From a virus (taxonomy: Duplodnaviria > Heunggongvirae > Uroviricota > Caudoviricetes): a stretch of DNA of 64,000 nucleotides. Position numbers and translations under genes: made by a program. The stretch is from IMG/VR virus record IMGVR_UViG_2721755676_000001; one strand, given 5' to 3'. Positions 1 through 63,318 of the stretch are shown piece by piece (the first letter of the stretch is position 1; every line of letters starts with the position of its first letter). The notes below the pieces were generated by a model. The model saw only the letters and a program-made list of their open reading frames with translations. It made no database searches and was not told where the DNA came from.

Positions 1-162
1 AAAGTCGGCGGGCGTCTTGTAGCAGTATTGCCGGGCACTGCGCCAATACTGGACTGGATGACGATGGATAATTACGTTTATGCCAGAGGGAAGTCGTTTA
101 CCAACGAGTTTGAAGACACAGGGATCACAGTCAGCGTATACGTTTTCAAACGCGTTAAATGA
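1..162 (+). CDS. hypothetical protein, C-terminal fragment (5' end outside window)
   Basis: Frame 1 is open from window start to TGA at 160-162; no recognisable motif. Confidence 0.25.
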   Translation, partial: KVGGRLVAVLPGTAPILDWMTMDNYVYARGKSFTNEFEDTGITVSVYVFKRVK

Positions 163-182
163 TAGGTAAATGCTTACTTAAT
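160..182 (+). promoter_or_regulatory. class II palindromic promoter-proximal element (TGATAGGTAA...CTTACTTAAT)
   Basis: Shares the 10-mer TGATAGGTAA with copies near 47806 and 57273; lies about 40 nt upstream of the start at 224. Confidence 0.4.
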
Positions 183-223
183 TTATGTAAGAATGTAGTT
201 ACTAAACGATAAGAGAAAAACAC

Positions 224-928
224 ATGAGCAACCTCCAGTTAGAGCATTTTAACGTCACAGGCCATTCCGATTTTCCTTTCAAGTTTACATTGAAAGGTTA
301 TGCAGAGGATGCGGTAGGCCAGATCATTATTGATAAAGGCATCGTTAAGTTTGAGGGGAATTTTGATGAATCCGCGAAAACATTCATAGACTTCGTTGCC
401 AAACGTTGGAGCGAGCAATGGAAAGACCTGGAAAAGCGCGCTAGTGAGTTTGATCGGTTCATGGATGCAATGGATACAGCAAAAGAGGCTCTTGCTGCCG
501 GGACTCCGTTAGATCTGGAGTCACTTTTCAACGGAGAAGTGGCCTCTGCGATGTTCGCCACCATGTTCGCGGGTGAGTTCGTCCGCAGCGGTGCCAAAAA
601 CTACCTTGAGCTGGATTACAACGTCCCTGCAATTGGCGATTTCGTCGTTACCATCCAACGCAAAGAAGGTAAGACGCCAGGTGAACGCGTCGCAGAGCTT
701 GAGGCCGTTGTGGATCAGCGTAACGGAGAGTGTGACCGTTTGATCAACGAGCTTCATGCACTTCGGGAAGAAAGAATATGCGCGGGTAGCAATACACGTA
801 ATGCAGCGGATATCTACTTCCAGTTAGTTGAGGAATGCCAGATTCCACCAGGCGGCTCTCTTGTCGATTACGTCAGACATTTAATGACGGAAGTTAACTC
901 CAGCCATAAAGATGGTGAGGTGCGCTGA
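224..928 (+). CDS. hypothetical protein (234 aa)
   Basis: Long ORF with ATG start preceded by a class II element; the 15-mer GAAAAACACATGAGC at its start recurs at 55195-55209. No recognisable domain. Confidence 0.55.
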   Translation: MSNLQLEHFNVTGHSDFPFKFTLKGYAEDAVGQIIIDKGIVKFEGNFDESAKTFIDFVAKRWSEQWKDLEKRASEFDRFMDAMDTAKEALAAGTPLDLESLFNGEVASAMFATMFAGEFVRSGAKNYLELDYNVPAIGDFVVTIQRKEGKTPGERVAELEAVVDQRNGECDRLINELHALREERICAGSNTRNAADIYFQLVEECQIPPGGSLVDYVRHLMTEVNSSHKDGEVR

Positions 929-1308
929 TGTTTGGCATTGATGCACAGCGTATAGCAGCTTTTGCAAAAAGCCCTCTTGATAATCCCTTGTCTCGTAGTG
1001 AGCAAATGGCGCTGGCAAGGCTTTTTCTTCACATTCAAAAACAGGCAGACATTTTCAATAACATGCCTAATCAACCTATTCTGGATGGTCACATCCAGAT
1101 GGTCATTAACAGTCATGAGAAAGGCTGGGCTGCAATCGTCCCCTGCACAATTACATACAAGTTGGCGAAAGAGGTTCAAGAGTTTCGTAAAGCCAGTGTC
1201 GAATCGGAGTCTACCAAAGCCGCAATAAACACTCTTATTCGCATGGGGTTCACATGGAACGGTGGAGCCTACTGGCAAGCACCTCACCCCATTTTATCCG
1301 GCAATTAG
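928..1308 (+). CDS. hypothetical protein (126 aa)
   Basis: ATGA stop-start overlap with the preceding gene; weak hairpin GGCCA..TGGCC downstream (about 1341-1357). Confidence 0.5.
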   Translation: MFGIDAQRIAAFAKSPLDNPLSRSEQMALARLFLHIQKQADIFNNMPNQPILDGHIQMVINSHEKGWAAIVPCTITYKLAKEVQEFRKASVESESTKAAINTLIRMGFTWNGGAYWQAPHPILSGN

Positions 1309-1363
1309 ACGCTACAAATCCTTCGGCATGAATAAATAAAGGCCATAAGTTGTGGCCTTAAAT

Positions 1364-1416
1364 AAATTGTTTTCTATCTTTTCTTATTTGTGAAAATAAC
1401 CACAACTAGAAAACAA
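1364..1416 (+). promoter_or_regulatory. class I promoter/operator unit
   Basis: TTGTTTTCT half-site, TGtGAAAAT extended -10-like (1389-1397), AGAAAACAA half-site 10 nt downstream; same architecture and near-identical sequence to units at 4982-5046 and 8915-8955. Confidence 0.45.
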
Positions 1417-1427
1417 CGGAGTTAAGA

Positions 1428-1475
1428 ATGTCTAGTATTTCCGAAGCTCATATGTTCGCCGCTGGCGCTCGGTGA
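1428..1475 (+). other. 15-codon micro-ORF (MSSISEAHMFAAGAR) between class I promoter and terminator
   Basis: ATG with GGAG 7 nt upstream; stops after 15 codons; may be a short transcript or remnant of a truncated early gene. Confidence 0.25.
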
Positions 1476-1572
1476 TGCTGCCAACTTACTGATTTAGTGT
1501 ATGATGGTGTTTTTGAGGTGCTCCAGTGGCTTCTGTTTCTATCAGCTGTCCCTCCTGTTCAGCTACTGACGG

Positions 1573-1605
1573 GGTGGTGCGTAACGGCAAAAGCACCACC
1601 TTTTT
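1573..1605 (+). terminator. intrinsic terminator, plus-strand only (GGTGGTGC..GCACCACC + TTTTT)
   Basis: 8-bp GC-rich stem followed by T5; ends 1 nt before the mrp stop codon. Confidence 0.55.
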
Positions 1606-1606
1606 A

Positions 1607-2707
1607 TCACACTGCGCGGAATGCGATTTCGCCAGGTATTACTTCACCTTGCCAATACATTTGGGCAGCAACGCGATCTGCGAGGTCACGATAAATAGCC
1701 GTAAATTCACTATCTGGACGACTAATAACGGTTGGTGTTCCGTTATCCAGATCTTCACGAAGAGAGATATGAAGTGGCATTTGGCCTAACAACTGCGTGT
1801 TGTATTTCTCGGCCAGTTTCTGTGCGCCACCGGTGCCAAAAATTGGCTCGTGATGACCGCAGTTACTGCAAATATGCACACTCATGTTTTCAACGATACC
1901 CAGTACCGGCACTTCGACTTTTTCGAACATCACAATGCCTTTCTTCGCATCGATCAGCGCGATGTCTTGCGGCGTAGTTACCACAACCGCACCAGTTACA
2001 GGAATGTTCTGCGCCAGCGTCAATTGAATATCACCAGTGCCCGGTGGCATATCGAGAACGAGATAGTCCAGATCAGGCCACAGTGTTTCCTGCAACATCT
2101 GCATCAGCGCCTTGCTGGCCATCGGTCCACGCCACACCATTGCATTGTCGTCGGTGACCAGATAACCAATAGAGTTGGTTGCCAGGCCATGAGACATGAT
2201 AGGTGCCATGTGAGTACCGTCCGGTGAGGTTGGACGTTGGTTTTCCGCGCCCAGCATGGTTGGAATTGATGGACCATAGATATCGGCATCCAAAATACCA
2301 ACTTTCGCACCTTCAGCAGCCAACGCCAGTGCCAGGTTTACCGCCGTGGAGGATTTACCCACGCCGCCCTTGCCTGAGCTGACGGCGATAATGTTCTTAA
2401 CGCCATTAATGCCTGGTTGGTTTTTGACGCGCTTAAGCGTGGCAATGTTGTACGACAGCTTCCAGTCAATAGCCTTTGCGCCAGTGATACGGAGCAGATC
2501 ACCACTACATTGCTCTTTCAGGTCTTCAAAAGGCTTATTCCACACGAAAGGCATGATTAGTTCGACATGCAGTGTGTCATCCATCAACGCAACATGGTGT
2601 AACGCTTTAAGCGTAGTCAGGTTGTGTTTCAGGGTTGGGTGCTGAAAATTAGCCAGCGTACCGGCTACCATTGCTCTCAGGGCATCCGGCGATTTGGACT
2701 CGCTCAT
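1607..2707 (-). CDS. apbC: iron-sulfur cluster carrier ATPase Mrp/ApbC
   Basis: 366 aa; P-loop [11 protein letters not shown]-terminal CSNCGHH; near-identical to enterobacterial Mrp as recalled. Confidence 0.95.
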
Positions 2708-2864
2708 CCCGTCTCCTTTATTTTAATTTGCGCAATTGTCGCCTTGTAGTGTACTCCAGCTACGACATTTAATCATTTATGAGAAATGCTGTTATCACAT
2801 GGCAGACATAAGGCCATTTTGTTACTATCAAGCCCCTTTTCACTACAAAGAAGTAATGCCTACT

Positions 2865-4898
2865 ATGACCCAAGTCGCGAAGAAAATTCTGGTGACGTGC
2901 GCGCTGCCGTACGCTAACGGCTCAATCCACCTCGGCCATATGCTGGAGCACATCCAGGCTGATGTCTGGGTTCGTTACCAGCGAATGCGCGGCCACGAGG
3001 TTAATTTCATCTGTGCCGACGATGCCCACGGTACGCCAATCATGCTGAAAGCACAGCAGCTTGGTATCACACCGGAACAGATGATTGGCGAAATGAGTCA
3101 GGAACATCAGACTGATTTCGCAGGCTTTAACATCAGCTATGACAACTATCACTCGACGCACAGCGAAGAGAACCGTCAGTTGTCCGAGCTTATCTATACT
3201 CGCCTGAAAGAGAACGGTTTTATTAAAAACCGCACCATCTCTCAGCTGTACGACCCGGAAAAAGGCATGTTCCTGCCGGACCGTTTTGTAAAAGGCACAT
3301 GCCCGAAATGTAAAGCGCCGGATCAATACGGCGATAACTGTGAAGTCTGCGGCGCGACATACAGCCCGACGGAACTGATCGAGCCGAAATCAGTGGTTTC
3401 TGGCGCTACACCGGTAATGCGTGATTCCGAACACTTCTTCTTTGATCTGCCTTCTTTCAGCGAAATGTTGCAGGCATGGACCCGCAGCGGTGCGTTGCAG
3501 GAGCAGGTGGCAAACAAAATGCAGGAGTGGTTTGAATCTGGCCTGCAACAGTGGGATATCTCCCGTGACGCACCTTACTTCGGTTTTGAAATTCCGAACG
3601 CACCGGGCAAATACTTCTACGTCTGGCTGGACGCGCCGATTGGCTACATGGGTTCCTTCAAGAATCTGTGCGACAAACGCGGCGACACTACCAGCTTCGA
3701 CGAATACTGGAAGAAAGACTCCACCGCCGAGCTGTACCACTTCATCGGCAAAGATATCGTTTACTTCCACAGCCTGTTCTGGCCTGCCATGCTGGAAGGC
3801 AGCAACTTCCGCAAGCCGACCAACCTGTTTGTTCACGGCTATGTGACGGTGAACGGCGCGAAGATGTCCAAGTCTCGCGGCACCTTTATTAAAGCCAGCA
3901 CCTGGCTGAATCATTTTGACGCCGACAGCCTGCGTTACTACTACACTGCGAAACTCTCTTCGCGCATTGATGATATCGATCTCAACCTGGAAGATTTCGT
4001 TCAGCGTGTGAATGCCGATATCGTTAACAAAGTGGTTAACCTGGCCTCCCGTAATGCAGGCTTTATCAACAAGCGTTTTGACGGCGTGCTGGCAAGCGAA
4101 CTGGCTGACCCGCAACTGTACAAAACCTTTACTGATGCCGCTGAAGTGATTGGCGAAGCATGGGAAAGCCGCGAATTTGGCAAAGCTATCCGTGAAATCA
4201 TGGCACTGGCTGACCTGGCTAACCGCTATGTTGATGAACAGGCTCCGTGGGTGGTGGCAAAGCAGGAAGGACGCGATGCCGATCTGCAGGCGATTTGCTC
4301 TATGGGCATTAACCTGTTCCGCGTGCTGATGACGTACCTGAAACCGGTACTGCCGAAACTGACTGAACGTGCAGAAGCATTCCTGAATACAGAACTGACC
4401 TGGGATGGTATCCAGCAACCGCTGCTGGGCCATAAAGTGAATCCGTTCAAGGCACTGTATAACCGCATCGATATGAAGCAGGTTGAAGCACTGGTGGAAG
4501 CATCCAAAGAAGAAGTGAAAGCCACAGCCGCACCGGTAACTGGCCCACTGGCTGACGACCCGATTCAGGAAACTATCACCTTTGACGACTTCGCCAAAGT
4601 TGACCTGCGCGTGGCGCTGATTGAAAACGCAGAGTTTGTAGAAGGTTCTGACAAACTGCTTCGCCTGACGCTGGATCTCGGTGGTGAAAAGCGTAATGTC
4701 TTCTCAGGCATCCGTTCCGCTTATCCAGATCCACAGGCACTGATTGGTCGTCACACCATTATGGTGGCTAACCTGGCACCACGTAAAATGCGCTTCGGTA
4801 TCTCTGAAGGCATGGTGATGGCTGCTGGCCCCGGCGGGAAAGATATCTTCCTGTTAAGCCCGGATGCTGGTGCTAAACCTGGCCACCAGGTTAAGTAA
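2865..4898 (+). CDS. metG: methionyl-tRNA synthetase
   Basis: 677 aa from the ATG at 2865 ([29 protein letters not shown] motif, KMSKS, zinc knuckle CPKC..C..C, C-terminal tRNA-binding domain); divergent from mrp as in E. coli-type chromosomes. Confidence 0.95.
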
Positions 4899-4920
4899 TT
4901 AAACAACCTCTCTTCGCAAT

Positions 4921-4946
4921 GCCCGGCAACACGCCGGGCATTTTCA
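4921..4946 (+). terminator. intrinsic terminator downstream of metG
   Basis: GCCCGGC aacac GCCGGGC followed by ATTTTCAT. Confidence 0.7.
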
Positions 4947-4981
4947 TATAGACACAACCCCTTCTGACTTTAACAAACTCT

Positions 4982-5046
4982 AAAACAATTTGTTTTCTAC
5001 CTTTTGTTGATTGAGATAATAAGTCATATAAGAAAACAAATTGTTT
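4982..5046 (+). promoter_or_regulatory. class I promoter/operator unit (two palindromes flanking an extended -10)
   Basis: AAAACAATTTGTTTT (4982-4996), tTGaGATAAT (5011-5020), AGAAAACAAATTGTTT (5031-5046) directly before SD AGGAG. Confidence 0.5.
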
Positions 5047-5051
5047 AGGAG

Positions 5052-5300
5052 ATGAAGATGTTTGGAACAGCAAAAGAAATCATCGAGAAACTGAAAAACT
5101 ATCCAGAAGACGAACCCTTACTCATGGTTATGTGGCACAAAGAAGATATTGCTGAAGTAAGGACAGATCTCACTGATGAACAATGCGTACAGGTGATGCA
5201 AAAAATCAGACAATGCCATAACGCTGATGTCGGCGTTAATTGGGAGGTTATATCAACTACGGCGAATGAGTTGTTTCCGAACGGGGTGGTAAAATGCTGA
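5052..5300 (+). CDS. hypothetical small protein (82 aa; start may be the ATG at 5058)
   Basis: ORF immediately downstream of a class I unit and SD. Confidence 0.5.
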   Translation: MKMFGTAKEIIEKLKNYPEDEPLLMVMWHKEDIAEVRTDLTDEQCVQVMQKIRQCHNADVGVNWEVISTTANELFPNGVVKC

Positions 5301-5594
5301 AACTCACCAAATTGTATAAGACGACAGTTAGTAGCCCTACCCTCGTTACACAGCATGACTCTGAGTGTCTACCAAATATCTGTTTCGAGCACCATACAAT
5401 CTCGGACTCAATTGGGTACAGAAACGGAGTATGGGGGAGTCAGGGGAGGGAAGAAAAGCTGCGTGATTACGGTGTCACATAGCAAACCATCAAGAACATT
5501 CGAAAGGTGCTCGATGTAGGATTTGATGCGGTACAATTCCACCCTGACGCTGAAATAGACGATGGTCTGGAAAATTGGAAATTGTGAGGGATAA

Positions 5595-5993
5595 ATGAAA
5601 TATGCACCATTGGCACTAATATTTTTTGTGCTTTCTGCTAATGCCACGCCAGTTGAAGAGCCTAACACTATCGTGTACCCACGATGCATGAAAATAGATC
5701 CGGAAACACACAAGCAATTACCTGGTTACAATATTGTTATGGATATAGGGAATAAATTTAAAATCGTTTCCCCAAATGGGAATTCGGTGATATCCATCTC
5801 GCTTGCCCAAAGTGAAAAAGATAGGAACATGTTCGACGCCTCAGTCGGCGATGTTTACTTCTCTCGTTACCATGTTCAACCTGATGGGAACTTTCTATAC
5901 TCAGCCTGGAGTGAAAAGGCGAAAGTTACAGTGCTGTGTAATGGTAAAAGCGGTGAGCGGCATTACGTTGACCCTATTCATTTCGAGAACTGA
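5595..5993 (+). CDS. hypothetical secreted protein (132 aa)
   Basis: N-terminal signal-peptide-like segment MKYAPLALIFFVLSANA; SD GAGGGA upstream. Confidence 0.55.
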   Translation: MKYAPLALIFFVLSANATPVEEPNTIVYPRCMKIDPETHKQLPGYNIVMDIGNKFKIVSPNGNSVISISLAQSEKDRNMFDASVGDVYFSRYHVQPDGNFLYSAWSEKAKVTVLCNGKSGERHYVDPIHFEN

Positions 5994-6122
5994 CTACACA
6001 AGTAAACAAATCAATCAGTTGATAATGGCGGTCACAATTTGATTCTTTTCTATAAGAATCCGTTGATCGCCACTACTCTTCTTCCATACCCGCAATCACA
6101 TCCTTAAATATCAATAAGTTAT

Positions 6123-6150
6123 AGTTGTTTATACAATCAAGAAAACAACT
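6123..6150 (+). promoter_or_regulatory. class I-type unit with split palindrome around a TACAAT -10-like hexamer
   Basis: AGTTGTTT-aTACAAT-ca-AGAAAACAACT. Confidence 0.35.
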
Positions 6151-6860
6151 GAATAACAGATCAACGAAACATCAACGCTTTCACCCGATTTGGTCTAAAA
6201 AATTGACGTTTTCACACATCACTGCTTATACCCGTAACTCTACGCAGCAGACAGCGCCACAGCGTCCAATTTTCACCACAGACGACCCAACACACTACCA
6301 ACAAAAACACACGCTCAAAATCGCTCCCGTTGCGTTACACAACCATATAAACAACTTATTTTCAGGCATAACAAAACAACTAAATAACACAAATGCCATT
6401 TCCAAAAACAACCAACCTCTTTATGGCAGGCTACCGAAAAGACCCACCTCTTCTCCCCAGGCTACCGGACAACCAACCTAACTTTCACAGGCAATCCGAA
6501 AACATTCATACGCGCGATACCCACGACACGCCATTCCCCAAACAGCGAAGAACACCAGAATCACTGAAACCCCAACGAAGCCTGTAACCGCAAGGTTTCT
6601 CTCAATCCCAAAAGACACGAAACACAACAATCACGGGAAATGCCATTACCCAATACACGAATAACTACAAAAGCCCTTCACGCACTCCAGACAAACAACT
6701 CAAACACAATAACGAAAGGAATCGCCCACCTGCCATTACTCCATACACGGAGAAGAACAATCACCAAAACGACGAGAACACCCCATAGAAGAACCACCGC
6801 AAAACGAACGAAACCACATACACCGACAGAGAGAACAACACACCCAATTCACCAACAGAA
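6150..6860. other. A+C-rich (G/T-depleted) non-coding tract with degenerate internal repeats
   Basis: A+C about 75% on the plus strand (45% A, 32% C in 6601-6660); repeated TGCCATTnCnCnATACACG (6642, 6731); ORFs here are low-complexity artefacts. Confidence 0.6.
6416..6510. repeat. three tandem ~31-bp repeats with core CAGGCTACCG
   Basis: Cores at about 6427, 6458, 6488; homologous array at 9549-9650. Confidence 0.6.
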
Positions 6861-6976
6861 ATAGTTGCCGTATAGAACATTCTGGAAGGAGTGAGCATTA
6901 ACGCCTATAGAGAGGTTGAGACAGATAAAACACAACATGTATAGCGAAGAAGCCAGGTATGTATAAGTGGGGAGGG

Positions 6977-7000
6977 AAGGAGGGGTGTCGCCTCCTTTTT
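6977..7000 (+). terminator. possible intrinsic terminator (AAGGAGG..CCTCCTT + TTT)
   Basis: 7-bp stem with 7-nt loop and short T-run; would end a transcript from the 6130 promoter. Confidence 0.35.
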
Positions 7001-7063
7001 CGTATTTATTCAACTCCTGATTTTATCCCCCGTAACACCCCTACGGTCAGCCTTCGGTCCATA

Positions 7064-7198
7064 CAGGGAAAAGGTTGCATCCCGCTACAGAAACGGCTGG
7101 GTTGCCTTCGGGGAACGGCTGGAGGTTTTCAGGGAAACGGTCGAGTTGCCTGTGTGGATTTCGGGAAAAGGCTCGATGCCGGTTCAGGAACGGCGGCG
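7064..7198. repeat. six direct repeats of GGGAAACGGCT-like core, 21-32 bp period (iteron-like)
   Basis: Copies at 7064, 7088, 7109, 7130, 7162, 7185; related array at 10247-10326. Confidence 0.65.
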
Positions 7199-7507
7199 TA
7201 CCGGCATAGCGAGAGGGAGAGTTGCGGCTACCCACCTGTAATGTGCGGGAAGAAGAGAGGCGCTCACGTAGGCGGACTTACTTACCGCTGGATTCCCTCT
7301 GAATGCCCAGCTACAGCGTAATTGTGCCAGACAGCCAACGGGTCACAATCGATTTCAGTAGGTTTTTGGGGAGAGGATTACTCTGCCACCAGCCACTTTC
7401 GGCCACTAAATCAGAATAATGTAAAAAGTGTACTCGGTACTGAACCTGAAAACTCACTGCCAAAACCACATTCACCGGAATAAAATCCTTTTTCGCCTGT
7501 GCGTTAT

Positions 7508-7542
7508 TGCGATAATAACACCATCAAGAAAACATGTTGTTT
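7508..7542 (+). promoter_or_regulatory. class I promoter/operator unit
   Basis: tTGcGATAAT (7507-7516), 10 nt spacer, AGAAAACATGTTGTTT (7527-7542), then SD AAGGA. Confidence 0.45.
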
Positions 7543-7554
7543 AAGGATTGCTTT

Positions 7555-7884
7555 ATGTTTACAAATATCGACATCAACCAAATCAAGAAATTAACTCAAA
7601 AAGAGTTTGATCAGTTTTATGAGTTAGAAGGTTGGTCTTCCACTCTGATCAATTCAAGATGGGTGCTGGAACTGATGACTCGTGATGACGCACCTGCTTT
7701 GATGATCAGCGACATGGGTGAAGATGCTGACTTTATGGATATGAGCGAATTTTGTGTGGACACATACAACCGCAGCCAGAAGTACTACTTCACATGCGAT
7801 GGCGAAAATGACGTGATTTCTAAGGTCTATCTTCACCTCGTCCAGCATTGGGACGTTCAGGAGTTTCTTGAAGTATTCGAGTAA
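7555..7884 (+). CDS. hypothetical acidic protein (109 aa)
   Basis: ATG at 7555 downstream of operator and SD; the listed 7534 start lies inside the operator. Confidence 0.5.
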   Translation: MFTNIDINQIKKLTQKEFDQFYELEGWSSTLINSRWVLELMTRDDAPALMISDMGEDADFMDMSEFCVDTYNRSQKYYFTCDGENDVISKVYLHLVQHWDVQEFLEVFE

Positions 7885-7990
7885 CCCCAACCAAAGCCAG
7901 CATTGCTGGCTTAATTTCTCTATAGCCGCAGGGAAGAACCTGCATATCGCTCATGCGCCTGATCAATATGCTTTGTAGCCGTTTTCTTAC

Positions 7991-8026
7991 TGGTATTATT
8001 TACGCCATTGAGAAAACAAGTTGTTT
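7991..8026 (+). promoter_or_regulatory. class I promoter/operator unit
   Basis: TGgTATTAT -10-like, then AGAAAACAAGTTGTTT (8011-8026), SD GGAG. Confidence 0.4.
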
Positions 8027-8037
8027 ACGGAGTTGTG

Positions 8038-8349
8038 ATGAAAAAATCATTGGTTCTTGGTCTGGACAAAGACCAGAAGAGAAAAGAGAAGCCTGCGCTG
8101 GTTGCTCAATTAACTTTGCTGGACATCGTTGCCAATGGGACCTCTATTCGTCTGTTCCGTGAAACAGCGGTGTCTTTCGATAAAAACACCTTTACTCGTT
8201 ATGTAATGAATGTTCGTCGCCAGCGTGGAAAAGGCTGGGTGGCATTTCAAAGAATGTGGCCGGAACATCAGCTCGAACTGGCTTTGATGGAAGTTAACCG
8301 CGTGGCCCAGCAAGAGATTCAGAGAGCATCAGTGATGGCAATAGCCTGA
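8038..8349 (+). CDS. hypothetical protein (103 aa)
   Basis: ATG at 8038 after operator and SD. Confidence 0.5.
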   Translation: MKKSLVLGLDKDQKRKEKPALVAQLTLLDIVANGTSIRLFRETAVSFDKNTFTRYVMNVRRQRGKGWVAFQRMWPEHQLELALMEVNRVAQQEIQRASVMAIA

Positions 8350-8383
8350 TAATGTGCAAGTGGTAATTAGTCGACCGTACGAC

Positions 8384-8413
8384 AGCCCCGCCATCCTTAC
8401 GGGGCTTTTTTTG
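8384..8413 (+). terminator. intrinsic terminator
   Basis: AGCCCCG..CGGGGCT followed by T7. Confidence 0.7.
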
Positions 8414-8476
8414 TATTGTAAGTACATACTTACGATCATAGAATAGAAAAATAACCAATACACTACGGAGAGTGAA

Positions 8477-8872
8477 ATGACCGTTAAACGCGAAAAACTG
8501 ACAGTTGATGTTTACTATGCCTCTGAAACCGCCGAAGGTAAGAATGTGGCAAAAATCACCGTTGTTACGTACAACACCGAAACTGGTGCCGAAGTCCAGG
8601 CCAGTACGATCGTGCGTAAAGGTGATGCCTCCGGCGGCGAGTACGCGACTCAATACCAGTCCATTCTCGATGCAACTAACCCGCTGCTGCTGAAAATCGA
8701 GAACTACTTCCGCCAGGTTGATGAAGAGGTGTTTGAAACCATGATGAATATGGTTAACACCGTATTCGCCTCCAGCCTGAATACCAACACCACCTGGATT
8801 GGCCAGTATGGTCTGCGCATTACCTCCGGCATTCCTGCTGACACCTTAATCCCTGAAAGCGTATTCGCTTAA
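8477..8872 (+). CDS. hypothetical protein (131 aa)
   Basis: SD GGAGAG; class II palindrome GTAAGTAcaTACTTAC upstream (about 8420-8436). Confidence 0.5.
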   Translation: MTVKREKLTVDVYYASETAEGKNVAKITVVTYNTETGAEVQASTIVRKGDASGGEYATQYQSILDATNPLLLKIENYFRQVDEEVFETMMNMVNTVFASSLNTNTTWIGQYGLRITSGIPADTLIPESVFA

Positions 8873-8881
8873 TCCTCTTTG

Positions 8882-8909
8882 AATGGCGCGTAAACCGCGC
8901 CATTTTCTT
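8882..8909 (+). terminator. intrinsic terminator
   Basis: AATGGCGCG taaac CGCGCCATT followed by TTTCTT. Confidence 0.7.
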
Positions 8910-8914
8910 ATGCC

Positions 8915-8955
8915 CGATAACAATTTGTTTTCTGCCTTATCTGATTTGTGAAAAT
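8915..8955 (+). promoter_or_regulatory. class I promoter/operator unit
   Basis: AACAATTTGTTTTCT plus TGtGAAAAT; near-identical to the unit at 1364-1397. Confidence 0.45.
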
Positions 8956-8989
8956 GATTTCACTGAAGCAACTTAATAAGGAAACCATC

Positions 8990-9364
8990 ATGGGGCTTGA
9001 TATCTACATCGAGACGCAGCCAAAAAACGATCTGAATAACGAGGCATCCAGAAAGCAGGTTGCTTACTTCCGTAAGTTCAATGCGCTCGTTGGGTGGATG
9101 GAGCGCAACGTAGGTGAAGTCGAAAATTGTGAGCTTTTAGAATTAACGATGAATGACATTTGTCTTCTGAAAGCTCATTTGATGCACATAAACGAAAGCA
9201 ATTGCGAAGAGTACTTGCCTACTCGGGAAGGTTTTTTCTTCGGCAGTCAGGAGTACGACGAAGGTTACTGGCATGACGTGGATAAGCTGAAAAAACTTGT
9301 GGAAGACCTGATCAGGAACCACGACTTTCACAATAACAGACTGACCTTCTGCGCCTGGTGGTAA
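8990..9364 (+). CDS. hypothetical protein (124 aa from internal ATG)
   Basis: ATG at 8990 with SD AAGGAAA; upstream in-frame starts overlap the -10 element. Confidence 0.5.
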   Translation: MGLDIYIETQPKNDLNNEASRKQVAYFRKFNALVGWMERNVGEVENCELLELTMNDICLLKAHLMHINESNCEEYLPTREGFFFGSQEYDEGYWHDVDKLKKLVEDLIRNHDFHNNRLTFCAWW

Positions 9365-9366
9365 AT

Positions 9367-9510
9367 ATGGGCGATTTCAAGAAACGCCTGAAGGAAAGAG
9401 CCGAGATGATCAGAAAGCAAAACGCCTCTTCTGTCATCAGATACGCAAGGCAGTTTAGTCGCAACAACAAATCAGTTGAGGAAAAGATCCTTAGCGTAAT
9501 CGGTCGATAA
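9367..9510 (+). CDS. hypothetical small basic protein (47 aa)
   Basis: ATG 2 nt after the preceding stop; not in the supplied ORF track (below length cut-off). Confidence 0.3.
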   Translation: MGDFKKRLKERAEMIRKQNASSVIRYARQFSRNNKSVEEKILSVIGR

Positions 9511-10731: not shown

Positions 10732-10803
10732 AACGCGCCATCAATGGCGCGTTATTGTGGAAGTATTGGAAACGAAAAAAGCGCCCATAGTGGGCGCTCG
10801 ATT
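10732..10803 (-). terminator. tandem intrinsic terminators for the minus-strand operon
   Basis: Minus-strand hairpins AGCGCCCACTATGGGCGCT + T7 (10780-10798) and AACGCGCCATTGATGGCGCGTT + T6 (10732-10753). Confidence 0.6.
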
Positions 10804-11034
10804 TTATTTATGTAAACTGATTTCAAATCCCATTTCTACAAACGCTTTTAACATTAAAAATATATCAGCGTCGTTCACGTCTACTTTTTTTCGCTCCTGG
10901 TCGCTCAATAAGTCAATTTTGCGCGTCGTTTCATCTATAAGCTCGACTGCGCGCCCAGCGTAACCAGCGATCCCAGCGATGCGACTAACATAATATTCAT
11001 TATGGACGTTAACGCCAGCGATAAGAACAAACAT
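10804..11034 (-). CDS. hypothetical protein (76 aa), AT-rich
   Basis: ORF ending directly at the terminator; low GC relative to flanks. Confidence 0.45.
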   Translation of the reverse strand: MFVLIAGVNVHNEYYVSRIAGIAGYAGRAVELIDETTRKIDLLSDQERKKVDVNDADIFLMLKAFVEMGFEISLHK

Positions 11035-11054
11035 GATTAAGCTCCTTAAAAAAA

Positions 11055-11258
11055 TTAAATAGAATTTTGAAGTTTTCCGATTAATGCGCTTAAGCGTAAG
11101 TATTCACGTTTGCGCTTGCAATCTCGCTTGCTGTTAAGCAAATCAGAAAACGTAAAATTTAACTGGTCGCGTTGCGCGATCAAATCATCGATTAATTCTA
11201 GTTTATAAGCGCGATACTTTGCGCGATATTCCGCGCGGATCTTGTCATAGCTGACCAT
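11055..11258 (-). CDS. hypothetical coiled-coil protein (67 aa from second ATG)
   Basis: ATG at 11258 has SD AAGGAG; the longer 11303 start would place a hairpin inside the first codons. Confidence 0.4.
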   Translation of the reverse strand: MVSYDKIRAEYRAKYRAYKLELIDDLIAQRDQLNFTFSDLLNSKRDCKRKREYLRLSALIGKLQNSI

Positions 11259-11275
11259 TTTCAAAGCTCCTTTAA

Positions 11276-11294
11276 AGCGCCCATAGTGGGCGCT
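11276..11294. repeat. hairpin repeat AGCGCCCA-TAG-TGGGCGCT (second copy of the 10780-10798 hairpin)
   Basis: Identical 19-nt hairpin between two minus-strand genes. Confidence 0.5.
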
Positions 11295-11306
11295 TGATTC
11301 CATTAA

Positions 11307-11957
11307 TTACGCTTTGAAAGCATCAGCCAAATAATTGTAGAAATCATTCTTGATAAAGCGATATTGCTGTGTACCAGCTTTTGCGCTTCCCATTCCTTTG
11401 ACTTTCTCAACAAGTCCAAGACGTTCGCAAAGATTGATCAACTGGTTGGCTTGAGTATAGCCAGCGTCCAATTTAATTTCACACGCTTTTTTAGCTTCAT
11501 TCATTAAATCGAAAACAGCGCCATTGGTGAACGTGTCGATCTCGTCGTTAATCATATCGATTAAAGCGAATACACGAGATCCAGACATATCAGCGATGGA
11601 ATAAACGCATTTGCCAGATTTAATTGATTTAACCAGATAAACCAGTTTTTCCAGAGAATAACTATTAGTCATTGCATCACGGAAAAATACTTCTGGCGCT
11701 TGTTTGCTTGCTTTAATCGCATAGTAGAAAACAGAGCATAATTTTTCGTCTTCTACAGCGTTTACGACGTTGTTGATGAAGTAAGCAAGTTTAGTGGTAG
11801 CAGCTTGCATATTTGCTTTGTCTGCTTTGGTGTGCGTACCATTTTTATAATGTTCATTATATGTTTGAGTTGCCAGATCTGCTTTTTCGCGCAGTTCATC
11901 GGATACAATGGAAGCAGCTTCAACGATGGATTTTTTAGAAATGATAATGTTAGCCAT
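11307..11957 (-). CDS. hypothetical protein (216 aa), AT-rich
   Basis: Long ORF; C-terminal region (LINLCERLGLVEKV) is winged-helix-like; no firm family call. Confidence 0.5.
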   Translation of the reverse strand: MANIIISKKSIVEAASIVSDELREKADLATQTYNEHYKNGTHTKADKANMQAATTKLAYFINNVVNAVEDEKLCSVFYYAIKASKQAPEVFFRDAMTNSYSLEKLVYLVKSIKSGKCVYSIADMSGSRVFALIDMINDEIDTFTNGAVFDLMNEAKKACEIKLDAGYTQANQLINLCERLGLVEKVKGMGSAKAGTQQYRFIKNDFYNYLADAFKA

Positions 11958-12254
11958 GATTTTATTCCTTAGTATAAATATTAAAATTTAACTCAAGAAA
12001 GAAAGTGTTTTGCACTCGTTCCTGATGCGTTCAATTATCGACACGCGAAAAAAGATTGCAAGTGTTTTTTTAAGTTTTTTTGCAGGGATGAAAGTCCTAG
12101 AAATAAAAGCTAGATCGTCGAAGGTGTTCCCTAAATAAATAATAAATTCCGGCTTTTGACCTTATATATTTATACGGGGGAGAATTGAATGAGTGTTAAA
12201 CGAATGGCATGTAAAATAATAACCGGACTTAGCCGGTTATTACCCTTATAGAAA

Positions 12255-12773
12255 TTAAAACGGAAGGATTCGTTCAACCCAATCGAAGAAAATAAGTATT
12301 TTTCTACCGTCTTCCAACTTAAGTGTGACTAGACAGGCGTCAACGCCATCTGACGTTCCCTCAATTTCGCGACCGTCTGCCATGTAGACCCTTATAGATT
12401 TGCCGTTTTGGTAAGCCTGACGACATATCTTAAAAAAGTCACGACGTGATGGCTGATTAACCATCTGTTCATTGTTTAGCGTTAGTCGACCTGTGAATGA
12501 AGTGTCAACCTCTTCTATGCCCGACTCAATTGTGCTAATGCGCTCAAGAGGGAGCCTTATACGATTTGTGTTGCTAAGCGGATCTGGTGTGAGGTTCAGC
12601 TTATTTCTTGCGCTCAATAGCCCGTAGACATACATGCAAAATACTTGGCCGTCTTCGAGAGTGACTCTTACAGGAAATTTTGCACTCCGCCAGAAGAGCA
12701 AGGTGCGCTCAGCATGTTCGTAGTCTCGCGGCCAGACTTCAGCCGGTATGCCGTAGGTGATGTCTTTAACCAT
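12255..12773 (-). CDS. hypothetical protein (172 aa), AT-rich
   Basis: Isolated minus-strand ORF with downstream hairpin AACCGG..CCGGTT. Confidence 0.5.
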   Translation of the reverse strand: MVKDITYGIPAEVWPRDYEHAERTLLFWRSAKFPVRVTLEDGQVFCMYVYGLLSARNKLNLTPDPLSNTNRIRLPLERISTIESGIEEVDTSFTGRLTLNNEQMVNQPSRRDFFKICRQAYQNGKSIRVYMADGREIEGTSDGVDACLVTLKLEDGRKILIFFDWVERILPF

Positions 12774-12875
12774 AGTCTACCTTTTTAAGTCTTTTTTGGT
12801 CATTATATACATCTCTATGATGCGTAGACAGACTAACCGTACATTCCACCAAAAATTGATTATGGAATAAGTTTC

Positions 12876-13676
12876 ATGAAGAATGGGGTGAATAAAAAAT
12901 ACTCATTAGCATTGTTAATAGCGGCTTTACTATTAACAGGTTGTGATTCTGATGAAGAGCGAGCCATAAATCTAGTTGAAAAGGATATTCGCTCTACACT
13001 GCTAGATCCTGATGCTGGTCGGTTCACGAATATGCGAGCTATTCAGTTAGGTGAAAATAGCTATTCATATATGGTGTGTGGAGAGGTGAATGGCAAAAAC
13101 GTCTTGAACGCCTATACAGGTGCGACCGCATTCAATGCACACATCTTTGATGTTCGTGAACGTAACCCGATTGTATTCGTTACAATGGATAAAAGTACCA
13201 ACTCGGCAAGAGAACGATTACGTTTTGAACGCCAAAATCTAGCATGTAAAGAAAATGGTGTGAAACTTTATCTGGAAAACGAATCTAAAATCAGGAAGGA
13301 AAAAGAGAAAATAGATGATTTAAAAAAAACTCCATTAGGTCAGGCTGTGTTTGATGCTGCAAGTGATTCTACATATGTGAGTAGAGAGTTGGGCGAATCG
13401 AGAGGTGTTAGTGAAGTGTATGCAAGAGAAAATGATAAATATGCTCTTGTTAGCGTCACCAATTATGACACTCCTGACTTTTACAAATTTAGGAAAAAAG
13501 ACAACGGTGAATTAGAACCTGTTAGAGGGCTGTCTTATACCGGCTATCCATTCGCAGTTGCGCTGTGTCATTCTGAACAAACAGATTATGACAAATGCAT
13601 AACAGAAGAAGAAATCAGGTTGCTTCGAGACGAAAAGAATAAGCTCGACGATTTTGTCGTACCACCAGAAGAATAA
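12876..13676 (+). CDS. putative lipoprotein (266 aa)
   Basis: Signal peptide with lipobox LLTGC; terminator-like 12-bp-stem hairpin downstream (about 13735-13775). Confidence 0.6.
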   Translation: MKNGVNKKYSLALLIAALLLTGCDSDEERAINLVEKDIRSTLLDPDAGRFTNMRAIQLGENSYSYMVCGEVNGKNVLNAYTGATAFNAHIFDVRERNPIVFVTMDKSTNSARERLRFERQNLACKENGVKLYLENESKIRKEKEKIDDLKKTPLGQAVFDAASDSTYVSRELGESRGVSEVYARENDKYALVSVTNYDTPDFYKFRKKDNGELEPVRGLSYTGYPFAVALCHSEQTDYDKCITEEEIRLLRDEKNKLDDFVVPPEE

Positions 13677-14061
13677 CATATACAAAATATTTAATTGCTG
13701 TAAAATTTAATCGTTCAGACATAGGGAAAGCCCGACGCCCTCGACAAATCTTTTTGGTATTGTCGAGGGCGTGTTTCAGATATGCATCCTATTGAACTCT
13801 TCAGATTTATAGGTAGATAGCGTTAATTGGCGTTTTTGTTCTTCTCTTTTTTGTTAATTTCATCACATGCAATATCATCTACTATATTTCTTAGGTCACA
13901 CGTTTTTATAAATTGTCGCATATATCCTCCGAATTTCTTCGGAGGCGAAGCCTACAAATATCATTCAGCCTATCAAGATCTTTTTTCAGCCGAAGGTATA
14001 TACATTCAAAAATGTGATGAGTGTCACATGCAGGTGCTCTCATACACCTGCATGTAGACTA

Positions 14062-14628
14062 TTAATCATTCAATAATCTATATTTTCTTTTGATTAAATC
14101 TTCACCTTTTTTGGTGAACACAAAACCAAATTGCGATTTTTTGTTCAGCCTAAGGACTCTGTTATCCAACGCATCGGTTGATGGAATCAATGTTTGATCA
14201 TCTATCCAATTAAGTAGCGTAAGAAAGTTCAGCAGCCTCAACGTTGTTGTGCGAAGCTCTTTCGATATATTTTCAATGCTGGCAATTCGTCTTTCTTTTT
14301 TCTCAGGTGGTACAGATAATTGTTCTTGAGGTTTCGTGGGTAGATAATCAATTTCGTTTGCTGAATCGAATGATATGTGTGGCGTAATTTTGCTAAAAAA
14401 GCCTTTCGCTGACTCACTTGATAATAAACCAGACCTATTCATATCGTTTGTTATTCTGTACAGGAGTGGACTGTGTTTCATTTCAGGATAACGTTGATAA
14501 AAGTTAAGCAATTCAAAAGCAGCATTAGCACCAACAAGAAAATCAGAAGGATCGCTGACTTTCCAGAAAGAATGATTTTTCTTAGCGCCAGTGGTGTCAA
14601 CAAATGATAATTCTTTTAACCAACTCAT
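14062..14628 (-). CDS. hypothetical protein (188 aa from ATG with SD), AT-rich
   Basis: ATG at 14628 preceded by AAGGAG; last gene of the helicase operon. Confidence 0.45.
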   Translation of the reverse strand: MSWLKELSFVDTTGAKKNHSFWKVSDPSDFLVGANAAFELLNFYQRYPEMKHSPLLYRITNDMNRSGLLSSESAKGFFSKITPHISFDSANEIDYLPTKPQEQLSVPPEKKERRIASIENISKELRTTTLRLLNFLTLLNWIDDQTLIPSTDALDNRVLRLNKKSQFGFVFTKKGEDLIKRKYRLLND

Positions 14629-14693
14629 GATGTGCTCCTTTCTAACAAGTGAGCACATCATAGAATTAGTAGATAGGGGGTAAATATGAAATG

Positions 14694-14972
14694 TTACGGC
14701 AACCTGCTCAGTATTTCCTCTAGATCTTTTTTTGTCATATTGGAGTTCTCATAGATGCGCATGATTTTCTCACGCGTCTTAGCGGAAACCCCAACGGCAG
14801 ATGTGACTTTGTCAAATTCAGCCATAGTCATCGTCTCCAGAATGGCATTGATAACTTCAGCCTTAGACATCTTGATTTTTTTCTCTTTGAGTTTTATTTG
14901 AAATTTTCCAAGTTTTTCATTGGCCTTATCAGACAATGCCACTTGGCAATAAGTTGTTTTCTTTTCGCTCAT
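14694..14972 (-). CDS. small putative ribbon-helix-helix DNA-binding protein (92 aa)
   Basis: N-terminal beta-strand-helix pattern (TYCQVALSDKANEKLGKF); 3-nt gap to the helicase stop. Confidence 0.45.
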   Translation of the reverse strand: MSEKKTTYCQVALSDKANEKLGKFQIKLKEKKIKMSKAEVINAILETMTMAEFDKVTSAVGVSAKTREKIMRIYENSNMTKKDLEEILSRLP

Positions 14973-42343: not shown

Positions 42344-45300
42344 ATGTGGTACAGGGAAGGTACTATCACATTTACACAGGGCAGCAATACTCTGGTTGGG
42401 GCAGGGACAGCCTGGAACGTAACAGCTAATGGTGTGTTGCCGGGGATGATCGTCATTGGCCCCGACAATAAGCTGTATGAGATCAAGCGCGTAACCAGTG
42501 ATACGAACATTGTTCTCTCAGAACCTTATACCGGCGAAACTCAGTCTGAAGTTCCGTGCCGAATCATTACGACCTATGAAGGCGACTTAACACAGTTTAG
42601 CGCGCGCTTTACTGCGCTAATGTCGCGTATGTCGGCTGATTCCAAGTCCATACGCAGTTGGTTGACTGCGCTGGATGAGGTGACAATCGAGCGTGAAGAC
42701 GGTACAGAAGTGACCGTTAAGCCGCTAATGCAGATCGCCAACGAGCACAACGAAAACGTTGAGTGGTATAAAAATAACACTGACGCGATTGATGCTGCTG
42801 GCGACAAAGCTCGTGAGGCGGCGGCCAGTGCTGCCGCAGCAGCAAAAAGCGCCAATGCCGCTGGAGAAAAAGCCTCTCAAGCGTCTCAAAGTGCATCCGC
42901 TGCGGCATCCTCACAAAGTGCCGCAAGTGCGAGTGCAACTGCTGCGAAAAAATCTGAAACGAATGCTGCAGCGTCACAAAAATCTGCAGCCACTTCTGCA
43001 TCCACCGCGACCACGAAGGCGTCAGAAGCTGCCACCTCAGCCCGGGATGCGGCGGCCTCAAAAGAGGCAGCGAAATCATCAGAAACGAACGCATCCTCAA
43101 GCGCCAGTAGTGCCGCTTCCTCGGCAACGGCGGCAGGAAATTCCGCGAAGGCGGCAAAAACGTCCGAGACGAACGCCAGGTCTTCTGAAACGGCAGCGGG
43201 ACAGAGCGCCTCAGCTGCGGCAGGCTCAAAAACAGCGGCTGCGTCGTCTGCCAGTGCCGCGTCAACAAGTGCCGGGCAGGCCTCAGCCAGTGCCACCGCC
43301 GCCGGAAAATCGGCAGAAAGTGCCGCATCGTCTGCTTCAACAGCCACAACGAAGGCTGGCGAAGCCACTGAACAGGCCAGCGCAGCAGCGAGGTCTGCTT
43401 CCGCAGCGAAGACATCCGAAACGAACGCGAAAGCGTCGGAAACCAGCGCAGAATCCTCAAAAACGGCTGCCGCATCGTCCGCCAGTTCGGCGGCGTCATC
43501 GGCATCATCGGCGTCTGCTTCAAAAGATGAGGCGACCAGACAGGCGTCAGCAGCGAAGGGCAGCGCCACGACGGCATCCACGAAAGCAACAGAGGCGGCA
43601 GGCAGTGCGACGGCAGCATCTCAGAGCAAAACTGCTGCTGAATCCGCTGCGACTCGTGCGGAAGCTGCTGCTGATCGTGCTGAAGAGATTGCCGGTGCAG
43701 TTGCGATGGAAGACGCAAGCCTTACAACTAAAGGTGTTGTGAAACTTAGCAGTGCTGTCGACAGCACCAGTGAATCGCTGGCCGCAACGCCAAAAGCAGT
43801 TAAAGCAGCCAATGACAATGCGAATAGCAGGGTGCCATCTAACCGAAAAGTTAACGGTAAAGCACTGACTGCGGATATCAAATTAACGCCGAAAGATATT
43901 GGTACTTTAAATTCAGTAACGATGTCTTTCTCTGGCGGGGCAGGGTGGTTCAAACTGGCTACGGTTACCATGCCACAAGCGAGTTCCATCGTTTACATCG
44001 CATTGATTGGTGGCGCTGGTTACAACGTCGGCTCCCCACATCAGGCAGGCATTTCAGAACTGGTTCTACGAGCAGGCAATGGAAACCCCAAAGGGATTAC
44101 AGGTGCTTTGTGGAAGCGTACAGCTGTCGGATTAACGAATTTCGCCTGGATCAACACATCCGGCGATACATATGATATTTACGTTGAGATTGGCAATTAT
44201 GCGACTCGTGTAAATATCCATTGGGATTGTACTGCAAATGCGACAGTTTCTATTTATACCTCGCCAACATATTCAGCGAGTAAGCCTTCCAGCGTTACCG
44301 ATGGTGTTGTTTATACGATGTATAGCACACATCAGAAACCGACGCCGTTAGATATTGGAGCACTGCCAACAACCGGAGGAACAGTTTCAGGTCCGTTGTC
44401 TGTTACAGGTGGATTAACTGGTTCATTGAATGGTAATGCAAGTACAGCCACGAAATTGCAGACGGCAAGATCTATCGGTGGAGTTGTTTTCGACGGTTCT
44501 GCAAATATTAACCTTCCAGGTGTAAACACTACGGGTAATCAGAACACCACTGGTAATGCTGCAACTGCTACAAAACTTCAGACTGCAAGAAAAATATCCG
44601 GTGTTCCATTTGATGGTTCTACTGATATCACTTTAACCGCTGCGCATGTTGCCGCTTTCGCAAGAAGGGCAACAGGGTCATATGCGGATGCTGATGGTGG
44701 CGTGCCGTGGAATGCTGAATCTGGTGCTTACAATGTAACTAGAACAGGCGACAGTTATATTCTTGCCAACTTTTATACCGGTGTAGGTAGTTGCCGGACC
44801 CTGCAGATGAAGGCGCATTACAGAAATGGAGGTCTGTTCTACCGTTCCTCAAGAGATGGCTATGGTTTTGAAAGTGGTTGGGAGCAGGTTTACACGACTG
44901 GATTTATGCCTCAGCCGGCTGATATAAACGCGCCAACCGCTGCCGCTGGATGGTTAAATAGTGGTAACGGAACGGCATTTACGACTGCTCAATTTATAAC
45001 TTGGCTAAATAATCAGGGGGCATTTACAAACAAACATTGGATCGCACGGTGCTCATGGGCTTACGCCAACAATAATTATATAGACGACACTGGTTGCGGT
45101 AGGATCGATCTATCTGGTTCCGTGATTGAGGTGTTTAGTAATAAGGCAACAAGCCACTACACTATTCGTGTTACAACGACAACAACATCGGGTCATGGTG
45201 GTGTTAACAATGCGGAATTTATTTATGTGTACAATGGAAGTGATTATGCACCAGGCTGGCGTCGTTCTTATAACACTAGAAACAAACCAACAGCTTCTGA

Positions 45301-62763: not shown

Positions 62764-63318
62764 TCAATCTTCCCTTTGTTTTGGGTAGTGTTGTGTTCGT
62801 ATCGCATAGGAAGCTCCGTCATTTAAATAAGTTAGGCCACGCTCTTGTGTAAATCTCTTCACATATCTCTTGTATGTGGCCATCAGTTCTTCGCGTTCTG
62901 CCGCAAAGAATAAAATCTGTATGCCTTCATTGTCGGCAACTTTGAGCATTAAGTCAACTAAAGTACCGTAAAGGTATTGAAGTTCACCTAAAGTAAGATT
63001 AAAAGACCCTTCGGGTTTGGCAAATACGTTAATTGGCTCTTCCGCTCCAAGAGCAGCATTCTGGAGCTGTTCTTGCTGCCTGTCAAGTTGAATCATGTCC
63101 ACAAAACTAACGACAGATACACACAACCCATAAACATCAGCACCTAACATATTATGCATAGTTTCTGCGGCAACAGGATCTAAAGAAGGAGGGCAAAAGA
63201 CTAAACGGTATCTAGCCTTACGAGCTTCATTGCCAGAGAAAACAAAGTCTATATCTAAATATGACAGATCACCCGGCAATGAAGCCAAACCAGGTGTAAC
63301 CAACTTATGCAAGTGCAT
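62764..63318 (-). CDS. hypothetical protein (184 aa)
   Basis: Minus-strand ORF; a 48-codon ORF with SD overlaps its 3' end (about 62663-62807). Confidence 0.45.
   Translation of the reverse strand: MHLHKLVTPGLASLPGDLSYLDIDFVFSGNEARKARYRLVFCPPSLDPVAAETMHNMLGADVYGLCVSVVSFVDMIQLDRQQEQLQNAALGAEEPINVFAKPEGSFNLTLGELQYLYGTLVDLMLKVADNEGIQILFFAAEREELMATYKRYVKRFTQERGLTYLNDGASYAIRTQHYPKQRED

Follow-up and report, generated by a model that had tools for sequence, protein, structure and literature searches.

A FljA-family gene beside a conserved leader hairpin in the AT-rich arm of an SSU5-like phage-plasmid

Introduction

What is an AT-rich block of mostly hypothetical genes doing in a phage that lives as a plasmid, and why is one of these genes labelled a flagellin repressor? 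Both questions are raised by positions 10,804 to 14,972 of the IMG/VR virus record IMGVR_UViG_2721755676_000001 (Caudoviricetes), of which the whole stretch analysed, 64,000 nucleotides (nt) long, is here called the window. The interval holds seven genes, lettered A to G (Table 1). An earlier note, made from the sequence without database searches, had described it as a horizontally acquired cargo island of the moron type, with possible functions in defence, superinfection exclusion or toxin-antitoxin systems. Comparison with relatives leads to another answer: the interval is not one acquired island but mostly a conserved regulatory arm with one small swappable slot. Most of its content is ordinary. 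What appears worth following is the pairing of gene D, a FljA-family gene, with a highly conserved hairpin in the leader of the neighbouring gene C; if the proposed connection is true, it extends the presumed role of the FljA family.

SSU5-like phage-plasmids, to which the window belongs, are very common (about 800 plasmids in PLSDB, from E. coli, Klebsiella, Enterobacter and Salmonella). They spread resistance genes and have a backbone in common with pFra of Y. pestis. The control of lysis-lysogeny and maintenance in these elements is almost uncharacterised; hundreds of sequences of the element and its genes exist, for the most part with hypothetical-protein annotations, and the "flagellin repressor" label has hitherto been carried along unexplained. 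The occurrence of D in the core gene set even in non-flagellated hosts, its pairing with the C operon and the conserved hairpin together yield a concrete hypothesis for that label.

Results

Most of the interval is core to the phage-plasmid family

With its flanks, the interval matches non-mobilizable E. coli plasmids of ~110 kb at 98% identity from end to end and the Escherichia phages PhiR41_1 and Cyrano at 93–98%; similarity to Salmonella phage SSU5 is partial (~80%). Genes E and F lie on a plasmid in all 86 complete E. coli genomes that have them and on the chromosome in none, and a metG-apbC segment from the left of the window is plasmid-borne in close relatives. On these grounds, the window is classed by sequence comparison as an episomal, non-integrated SSU5-like phage-plasmid of E. 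coli, and an integrated prophage beside the chromosomal metG was rejected. The segment itself comprises apbC/mrp (1607–2707, minus strand) and a full-length metG for methionyl-tRNA synthetase (2799–4898, plus strand), which are usually chromosomal neighbours; 99% identical copies occur on ~110-kb plasmids, and at least 80% of window positions 1–9500 is present in 112 complete E. coli genomes. Annotated relatives have a common gene order, in which two ParB-like genes and an ABC ATPase gene are followed by a divergent DEAD-box helicase operon and then by the genes of the interval.

Genes C, D and G belong to the family core. By tblastn, D was found in 831 plasmids (Klebsiella 342, Escherichia 228, Enterobacter 92 and Yersinia 62, the last being Y. 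pestis pFra) and C in 814 (346, 216, 91 and 62, respectively), so that their genus distributions are near-identical; G is conserved across the family as C and D are (~800 plasmids). The C protein forms 102 clusters, every one on contigs of ~105–112 kb, from many enterobacterial genera. Identity to the window's C is 80–90% in 581 of the 814 plasmids and at least 95% in 184. D evolves much faster than C, with 735 of its 831 plasmids merely 60–80% identical to the window's D; the window's own allele is rare, being matched at 99% identity or more in only 27. Several D alleles (100, 84, 77, 75 and 67% identical to that of the window) occur on near-identical E. coli backbones.

The AT-richness reported in the earlier note is real: GC content is 0.384 in the interval versus 0.468 in the rest of the window, the lowest value among 1197 windows of the same size. 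This applies to the interval overall and not to D, whose GC content is 0.461. C has a GC content of 0.39–0.40 in SSU5, Klebsiella and Y. pestis relatives as well, and since it is AT-rich in all relatives, its low GC is an old property rather than a mark of recent acquisition. The three-gene minus-strand operon was described correctly, with a Shine-Dalgarno site before each gene, and the open reading frames (ORFs) lie where the note had placed them after two corrections. B starts at the ATG at 11258, not at 11303 (a Shine-Dalgarno site precedes the former, and the PHROG profile aligns with residues 16–82 of the long ORF), and the span 14062–14972, formerly taken as a single gene, contains both F and G. 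Tandem terminators and repeated hairpins bound the interval on the left side only; its right edge has no terminator, since G directly adjoins the helicase gene as part of the same operon.

Table 1. Features of the interval and its borders (aa, amino acids)
Feature	Position	Strand	Basis or remark
Second of tandem intrinsic terminators, end of C-B-A	10732..10753	-	9-bp stem, 6 GC pairs, then TTTTTATT
First terminator, hairpin GAGCGCCCACTATGGGCGCT and T-run, one of two hairpin copies	10779..10799	-	repeat/terminator inspection
Gene A, 76 aa, phrog_1585, optional cassette	10804..11034	-	missing in SSU5 and Klebsiella relatives
Gene B, 67 aa, basic, coiled-coil-like, phrog_6145, optional cassette	11055..11258	-	absent from Cyrano, LR890608
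Second copy of GC-rich hairpin GAGCGCCCACTATGGGCGCT, C-B spacer, without T-run	11276..11296	-	repeat search
Gene C, 216 aa, SSU5-like core gene, long helical N-domain	11307..11957	-	AT-rich in all relatives
Two-tier hairpin, predicted 5′ end of C mRNA, lineage-specific version	11993..12025	-	folding and leader comparison
Predicted sigma-70-type promoter of C operon, TTGCAA-16 nt-GATAAT	12034..12061	-	−10 conserved in all relatives
Terminator-like hairpin after D, TAATAACCGG-CTAAGT-CCGGTTATTA-TTTT	12213..12242	-	read directly from sequence
Gene D, 172 aa, FljA-family (PF03614), rare allele with strongly diverged central part	12255..12773	-	Pfam
D-E divergent intergenic region, 96% conserved with relatives	12774..12875		alignment
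Gene E, 266-aa lipoprotein, Asp at +2, four further invariant Cys	12876..13676	+	lipobox, homologue alignment, model
Perfect 13-bp inverted repeat, 12-nt loop, between convergent E and F	13735..13772		repeat search
Gene F, 188 aa, phrog_13473, strong Shine-Dalgarno site	14062..14628	-	narrow family, Escherichia plasmids only in collections searched
Gene G, 92 aa, core gene (phrog_1466) immediately downstream of helicase gene	14694..14972	-	PHROG, operon inspection

Gene D is a FljA-family protein away from any flagellin gene

D was among the genes said to lack recognisable domains, a statement that fails for it. Its product matches the Pfam profile PF03614 (Flag1_repress) with E = 1.3e-68 and a score of 230.5 bits, where 24 is the cut-off, residues 4–169 covering profile positions 1–170 of 170, and by this match it is a full-length member of the FljA family. 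FljA reportedly acts on the 5′ leader of fliC mRNA. A tblastn search with FliC found no flagellin gene in the window, and comparison of the K-12 fliC leader with the whole window gave no significant similarity. In relatives, the upstream neighbours of D are genes for lipoproteins or exported proteins, not flagellin; an arrangement of the fljB-fljA type was seen in Salmonella Senftenberg plasmid H76, not at D. Identity between D and homologues that adjoin a flagellin gene is 35–38%. None of the papers found links SSU5-type elements to a flagellin repressor.

D is transcribed in Cyrano lysogens, in which the C operon is essentially off

Lysogen expression values were taken from published Cyrano RNA sequencing (PMC9928086, S1 Table). 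Cyrano is 99% identical to the interval except in D and the C leader, and its E is likewise 99% identical. In these lysogens, D, E and G are transcribed and the C operon is essentially off (Table 2); this silence indicates that C-B-A is not a moron. G was named a moron by the authors of that study, at 12-fold above background (PMC9928086). E, at 4.8 in stationary lysogeny broth (LB), falls under the paper's 5-fold moron cut-off and reaches 8.0–9.4 in Dulbecco's modified Eagle's medium (DMEM) and in macrophages (PMC9928086).

Table 2. Expression in Cyrano lysogens, as replicate means of log2(fpkm+5), where fpkm is fragments per kilobase per million (PMC9928086)
Gene	LB	DMEM 1 h	DMEM 6 h	Macrophage 1 h	Macrophage 6 h
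A (CYRAN_112)	2.3	3.1	3.5	4.4	4.6
C	2.6	2.8	3.1	3.7	5.6
D	4.2	7.2	7.0	8.1	8.0
E (CYRAN_115)	4.8	8.0	9.2	9.3	8.7
F	3.0	4.1	5.7	5.7	5.9
G (CYRAN_117)	6.8	9.0	9.9	8.9	8.7

A conserved hairpin at the predicted start of the C transcript

Through D, 74 related IMG/VR loci were collected, with 35 distinct leader sequences among them; C follows D in 68 of the 74. A sigma-70 promoter is conserved ahead of C, and the leaders contain a family-wide hairpin, AUCG-AA-AGCR-AACA-YGCU-AA-CGAU, and in 35 of 35 the hairpin starts exactly 7 nt past the −10 element. Almost no variation is seen at 22 of its 24 nt, also in loci whose C and D proteins are only ~61% identical. Pairing is retained in 93% of cells versus 12–39% in slid controls, compensatory changes are present at two pairs, and the loop-closing pair is frequently open. 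Within IMG/VR, only SSU5-like contigs have the canonical motif, each in a single copy.

The canonical motif is absent from the window's lineage, which at this place has another two-tier hairpin that includes two G.U pairs. Its sense strand folds at −10.2 kcal/mol (z −2.4) and the antisense strand at −6.1 kcal/mol (z −0.8). Other hairpins at this place are found in three lineages, namely that of the window, that of locus L025 and a distant Klebsiella element. In the last of these, K. pneumoniae plasmid pL3995-2 (locus L082) of a distant SSU5-like lineage, positions 3986–5802 encode a helicase, a small gene, a FljA-like protein (38%), another small gene and a C homologue (49%); the leader hairpin there, CGAAACG-15 nt-CGTTTCG, starts 7–8 nt past a −10 element GATAAT.

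When the window was compared with two close relatives in 150-nt steps, the region from 9.7 to 17.3 kb proved 97–100% identical except for the 140 nt upstream of C (64–66%) and the body of D (67–86%). In one recombinant locus (L014), the N- and C-terminal parts of D are those of the window, and the central part of D and the hairpin are of the common type. Strict co-variation of D allele and hairpin type was not found.

A possible lock on the C operon and its rivals

The interval can be read as a regulatory and accessory arm in three layers, an interpretation to which we give close to an even chance. The first layer would be the core operon C-B-A, which is served by a sigma-70 promoter of its own, ends in two terminators and would be held off in the lysogen. 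The second would be D, encoded just upstream of C and transcribed in the lysogen: by binding the two-tier hairpin at the 5′ end of the C transcript, D would block translation of C and thereby shorten the life of its mRNA, as FljA is said to do on fliC mRNA, and would serve as a post-transcriptional lock on an operon intended for the lytic or establishment phase. The third would be the slot of variable content that separates D from the helicase-G operon and holds exported-protein genes in every relative, here E and F. The central step, namely that D binds the leader hairpin and represses the adjacent operon post-transcriptionally, is inferred from synteny, the expression pattern, the restriction of the hairpin to a single site and the paired replacement of D and hairpin in the window's lineage, to which the recombinant locus L014 adds a hint. 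We put it forward tentatively, as possible but somewhat short of evenly balanced.

Several points weigh against this proposal. The canonical hairpin is found with very diverse D proteins (60–100% mutual identity); co-variation of D and hairpin comes from one to three lineages and is anecdotal; and D and the C leader lie less than 300 bp apart, a distance at which co-inheritance is expected anyway. The transcription start of C is predicted from the promoter, not mapped, and the RNA sequencing concerns Cyrano, with a D allele that shares only 75% identity with that of the window. Transcriptional control alone, for example by a master repressor or by H-NS on AT-rich DNA, could keep C silent in the lysogen, and the 5′-terminal hairpin could be simply an mRNA stabiliser. 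An internal Sm/Hfq-like duplication in D was also considered and rejected, with Pfam hints at E ~0.08 only and a half-versus-half profile-profile comparison that was not significant.

Among the alternatives, the one that survives best, itself rather unlikely, holds that the palindrome past the C promoter is not the target of D, which would act elsewhere, and that it is instead a DNA operator (for an autoregulating C or for the main repressor) or a plain 5′ stabiliser. Operators typically lie where the palindrome does, namely over promoter positions +1 to +25, and C, with a probable C-terminal winged helix, is probably a DNA-binding protein. Moreover, most hairpin positions are invariant rather than co-varying, and the hairpin stays constant while D varies. 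However, the AA/AA internal loop is conserved yet non-complementary, the spacing of the arms ranges from 4 to 15 nt among lineages, and G.U pairs are present in the window's version, the sense strand of which folds far better than the antisense strand. These features suit RNA better than a dimer-binding DNA site, and the sequence comparison thus favours an RNA structure over a DNA operator for the C-leader element.

It is unlikely that D acts as FljA does, repressing translation of host fliC mRNA such that lysogens lose their flagella, with the adjacent hairpin unrelated to it. Such a loss could protect from flagellotropic phages or from recognition by Toll-like receptor 5 (TLR5). In favour of this, D is a full-length PF03614 protein, E. 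coli and Salmonella hosts carry fliC, and transcription of D in Cyrano lysogens rises in DMEM and macrophages. Nevertheless, D is core in the 342 Klebsiella plasmids, from a genus without flagella, and in the 62 Y. pestis pFra plasmids; together with its low identity to flagellin-adjoining homologues, the absence of a flagellin gene from the window and the lack of any fliC-leader-like sequence there, this argues that fliC is not the main target of D. This role and the binding of the C-leader hairpin by D are not mutually exclusive, and D may have a second, host target in flagellated hosts.

A variable slot occupied by a lipoprotein gene

The lipoprotein signal recognised in the earlier note was upheld. 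The signal of E, MKNGVNKKYSLALLIAALLLTGC, has a lipobox LTGC; K2, K7 and K8 are followed by the stretch LALLIAALLL and by LTG-C23; G22 and Cys23 are invariant in eight homologues. By the sequence criteria for signal peptidase II substrates, E is a bacterial lipoprotein. The +2 residue is Asp in the window and in E. coli and Salmonella homologues and Lys in three distant homologues, and E is probably a periplasmic lipoprotein retained on the inner membrane. A confident structural model of E (predicted local distance difference test score, pLDDT, 82.9) has two helix-plus-four-strand domains of the cystatin/NTF2-like kind joined by long helices. For F, a whole-library HMMER search for remote homology returned only ~10 proteins, none with a Pfam domain.

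E and F DNA was found in 78 plasmids, all from Escherichia, with both genes present in 43 of them. In other relatives, the same slot holds either an unrelated 140–145-aa lipoprotein (phrog_890) or a 197-aa signal-peptide protein with a 106-aa protein; its contents are thus exported proteins from unrelated families in different relatives. Diverged homologues of E (54% and 39% identity) and an F-like protein (27%) occupy this slot in Cronobacter and another distant relative, which indicates that E and F are alternative cassettes of an old slot rather than fresh imports. Wherever a relative has E, the gene is oriented divergently to D. The SSU5 lipoprotein was rejected as a homologue of E, as the signal peptides alone align. 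The spacer between E and F (13677–14061, 385 nt) contains two hairpins in addition to the 13-bp inverted repeat, and in some relatives it carries insertions, either a gene for an HNH endonuclease or a pair of additional small ORFs.

The marks of a moron are present in E, namely atypical composition (GC content at third codon positions 0.31 versus a window mean of 0.48), transcription in the lysogen from a putative promoter of its own and variability among relatives, E being present in only 43 of ~830 related plasmids. The cargo-island description holds for the lipoprotein slot alone, that is, for E and weakly for F, and not for the core genes C, D and G. As to defence, a comparison of all seven genes with the PADLOC models gave nothing at E ≤ 0.01 (PADLOC-DB 2.0: no match for A–E and G, and one chance-level match of F to SspC, E = 0.032, 9.9 bits). 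A horizontally acquired moron island with defence, superinfection-exclusion or toxin-antitoxin functions is quite improbable as an account of the block in its entirety: its minimal GC content, the limitation of E and F to 78 Escherichia plasmids versus ~830 plasmids for D, some plasmids that are 99.6% identical in E and F and 94% over the wider region (which suggests exchange) and the expression of E in Cyrano lysogens fit E at most, perhaps F, against the core status of C, D and G, the AT-richness of C in every relative, the silence of C and A in Cyrano lysogens, the lack of PADLOC matches, the independent occurrence of A and B and the divergence of E and F homologues together with the element in the same slot.

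Cassettes of the C operon, gene G and the rest of the window

Cyrano and LR890608 are without 11052–11263 (B), and SSU5 and the Klebsiella relatives are without 10799–11064 (A). The breakpoints fall on the repeated GC hairpin and a repeated Shine-Dalgarno stretch, AAGCTCCTT(A/T)AAA; the hairpin copy at 11276–11296 is possibly an attenuator or processing site as well as a recombination breakpoint. Because each gene is missing from some relatives, A and B are not an obligate pair, which argues against the toxin-antitoxin function proposed earlier. Such a pair was rejected, with A and B occurring independently and A at background in the Cyrano lysogen, and a Pfam search found no toxin or antitoxin domain in either. 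Pfam, PHROG and related searches gave no informative matches for A, B or F, and the "CorA/MIT transporter" label of phrog_6145, which would apply to B, is a mis-annotation. Profile searches against the PDB were uninformative for C and for G; G had no informative matches, and its assignment as a ribbon-helix-helix protein would be a guess from sequence. A scan of 9.5–17 kb with Rfam gave two sub-threshold matches only, both on terminators.

Elsewhere in the window, the most AT-rich long ORF (298 aa, 61262–62158, minus strand; GC 0.307, GC3 0.26) has no Pfam match, and its neighbour at 62764–63318 is AT-rich too. A GC-rich patch (0.58–0.60) at 42700–43750, within a 1432-aa ORF (42344–46642), has long overlapping ORFs on both strands. 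Positions 6001–7000 show strong strand asymmetry (GC skew −0.31, AT skew +0.34); tandem repeats were looked for there and none were detected.

Comparison with known systems

SSU5, pHCM2, pFra (pMT1) and Cyrano belong to the same family as the window and have the same succession of ParB-ParB-ABC, helicase-G, slot, D and C. The window differs from them in that its slot contains a phrog_20234 lipoprotein and F rather than the phrog_890 lipoprotein, and in its rare D allele, its replaced C-leader hairpin and its possession of both cassettes, A and B.

Apart from the D-C pairing, the slot with the lipoprotein gene offers a more ordinary candidate, for lysogenic conversion or for superinfection exclusion. 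A role of E as an envelope-acting factor of either kind is plausible. Like T5 Llp, phi80/N15 Cor, lambda Bor and TP-J34 Ltp, E is a prophage lipoprotein that is expressed in the lysogen, from a putative promoter of its own, AT-rich and encoded in a variable slot. It matches none of them in sequence or fold, however, and differs in its two cystatin/NTF2-like domains. In addition, Cor, Llp and Bor are outer-membrane proteins, whereas the +2 Asp of E predicts inner-membrane retention.

With FljA, the phase-1 flagellin repressor of Salmonella, D has in common a full-length PF03614 domain and a similar size (~170–180 aa). FljA is described as repressing the translation of fliC mRNA, and D is proposed to act on the 5′ leader of one specific mRNA. 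Unlike FljA, D does not lie downstream of a flagellin gene and has only distant flagellin-linked homologues; it is core to a phage-plasmid family whose hosts include aflagellate ones, and its proposed target is the adjacent operon, not fliC. If the proposal is true, FljA-type repressors would be a general class of hairpin-specific translational repressors, not a flagellar curiosity, and the C operon would combine a winged-helix regulator with small cassettes needed for lytic development or establishment.

A further parallel is found in the immI region of phage P1, in which c4 antisense RNA controls the icd-ant antirepressor operon. The likeness is a functional analogy only: both elements are phage-plasmids with a post-transcriptional lock, here a proposed one, on an operon that is off in lysogeny; in both, the gene for the regulator lies immediately upstream of the target, and different alleles could set specificity types. 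In the window, a protein instead of an antisense RNA would be the regulator, no sequence relationship exists, and C is a putative antirepressor or activator. It is conceivable, albeit doubtful, that a FljA-family RNA-binding protein was recruited as a dedicated switch on the C-operon leader hairpin, and that rare matched replacements of protein and hairpin, such as the one in the window, create new immunity-like specificity types.

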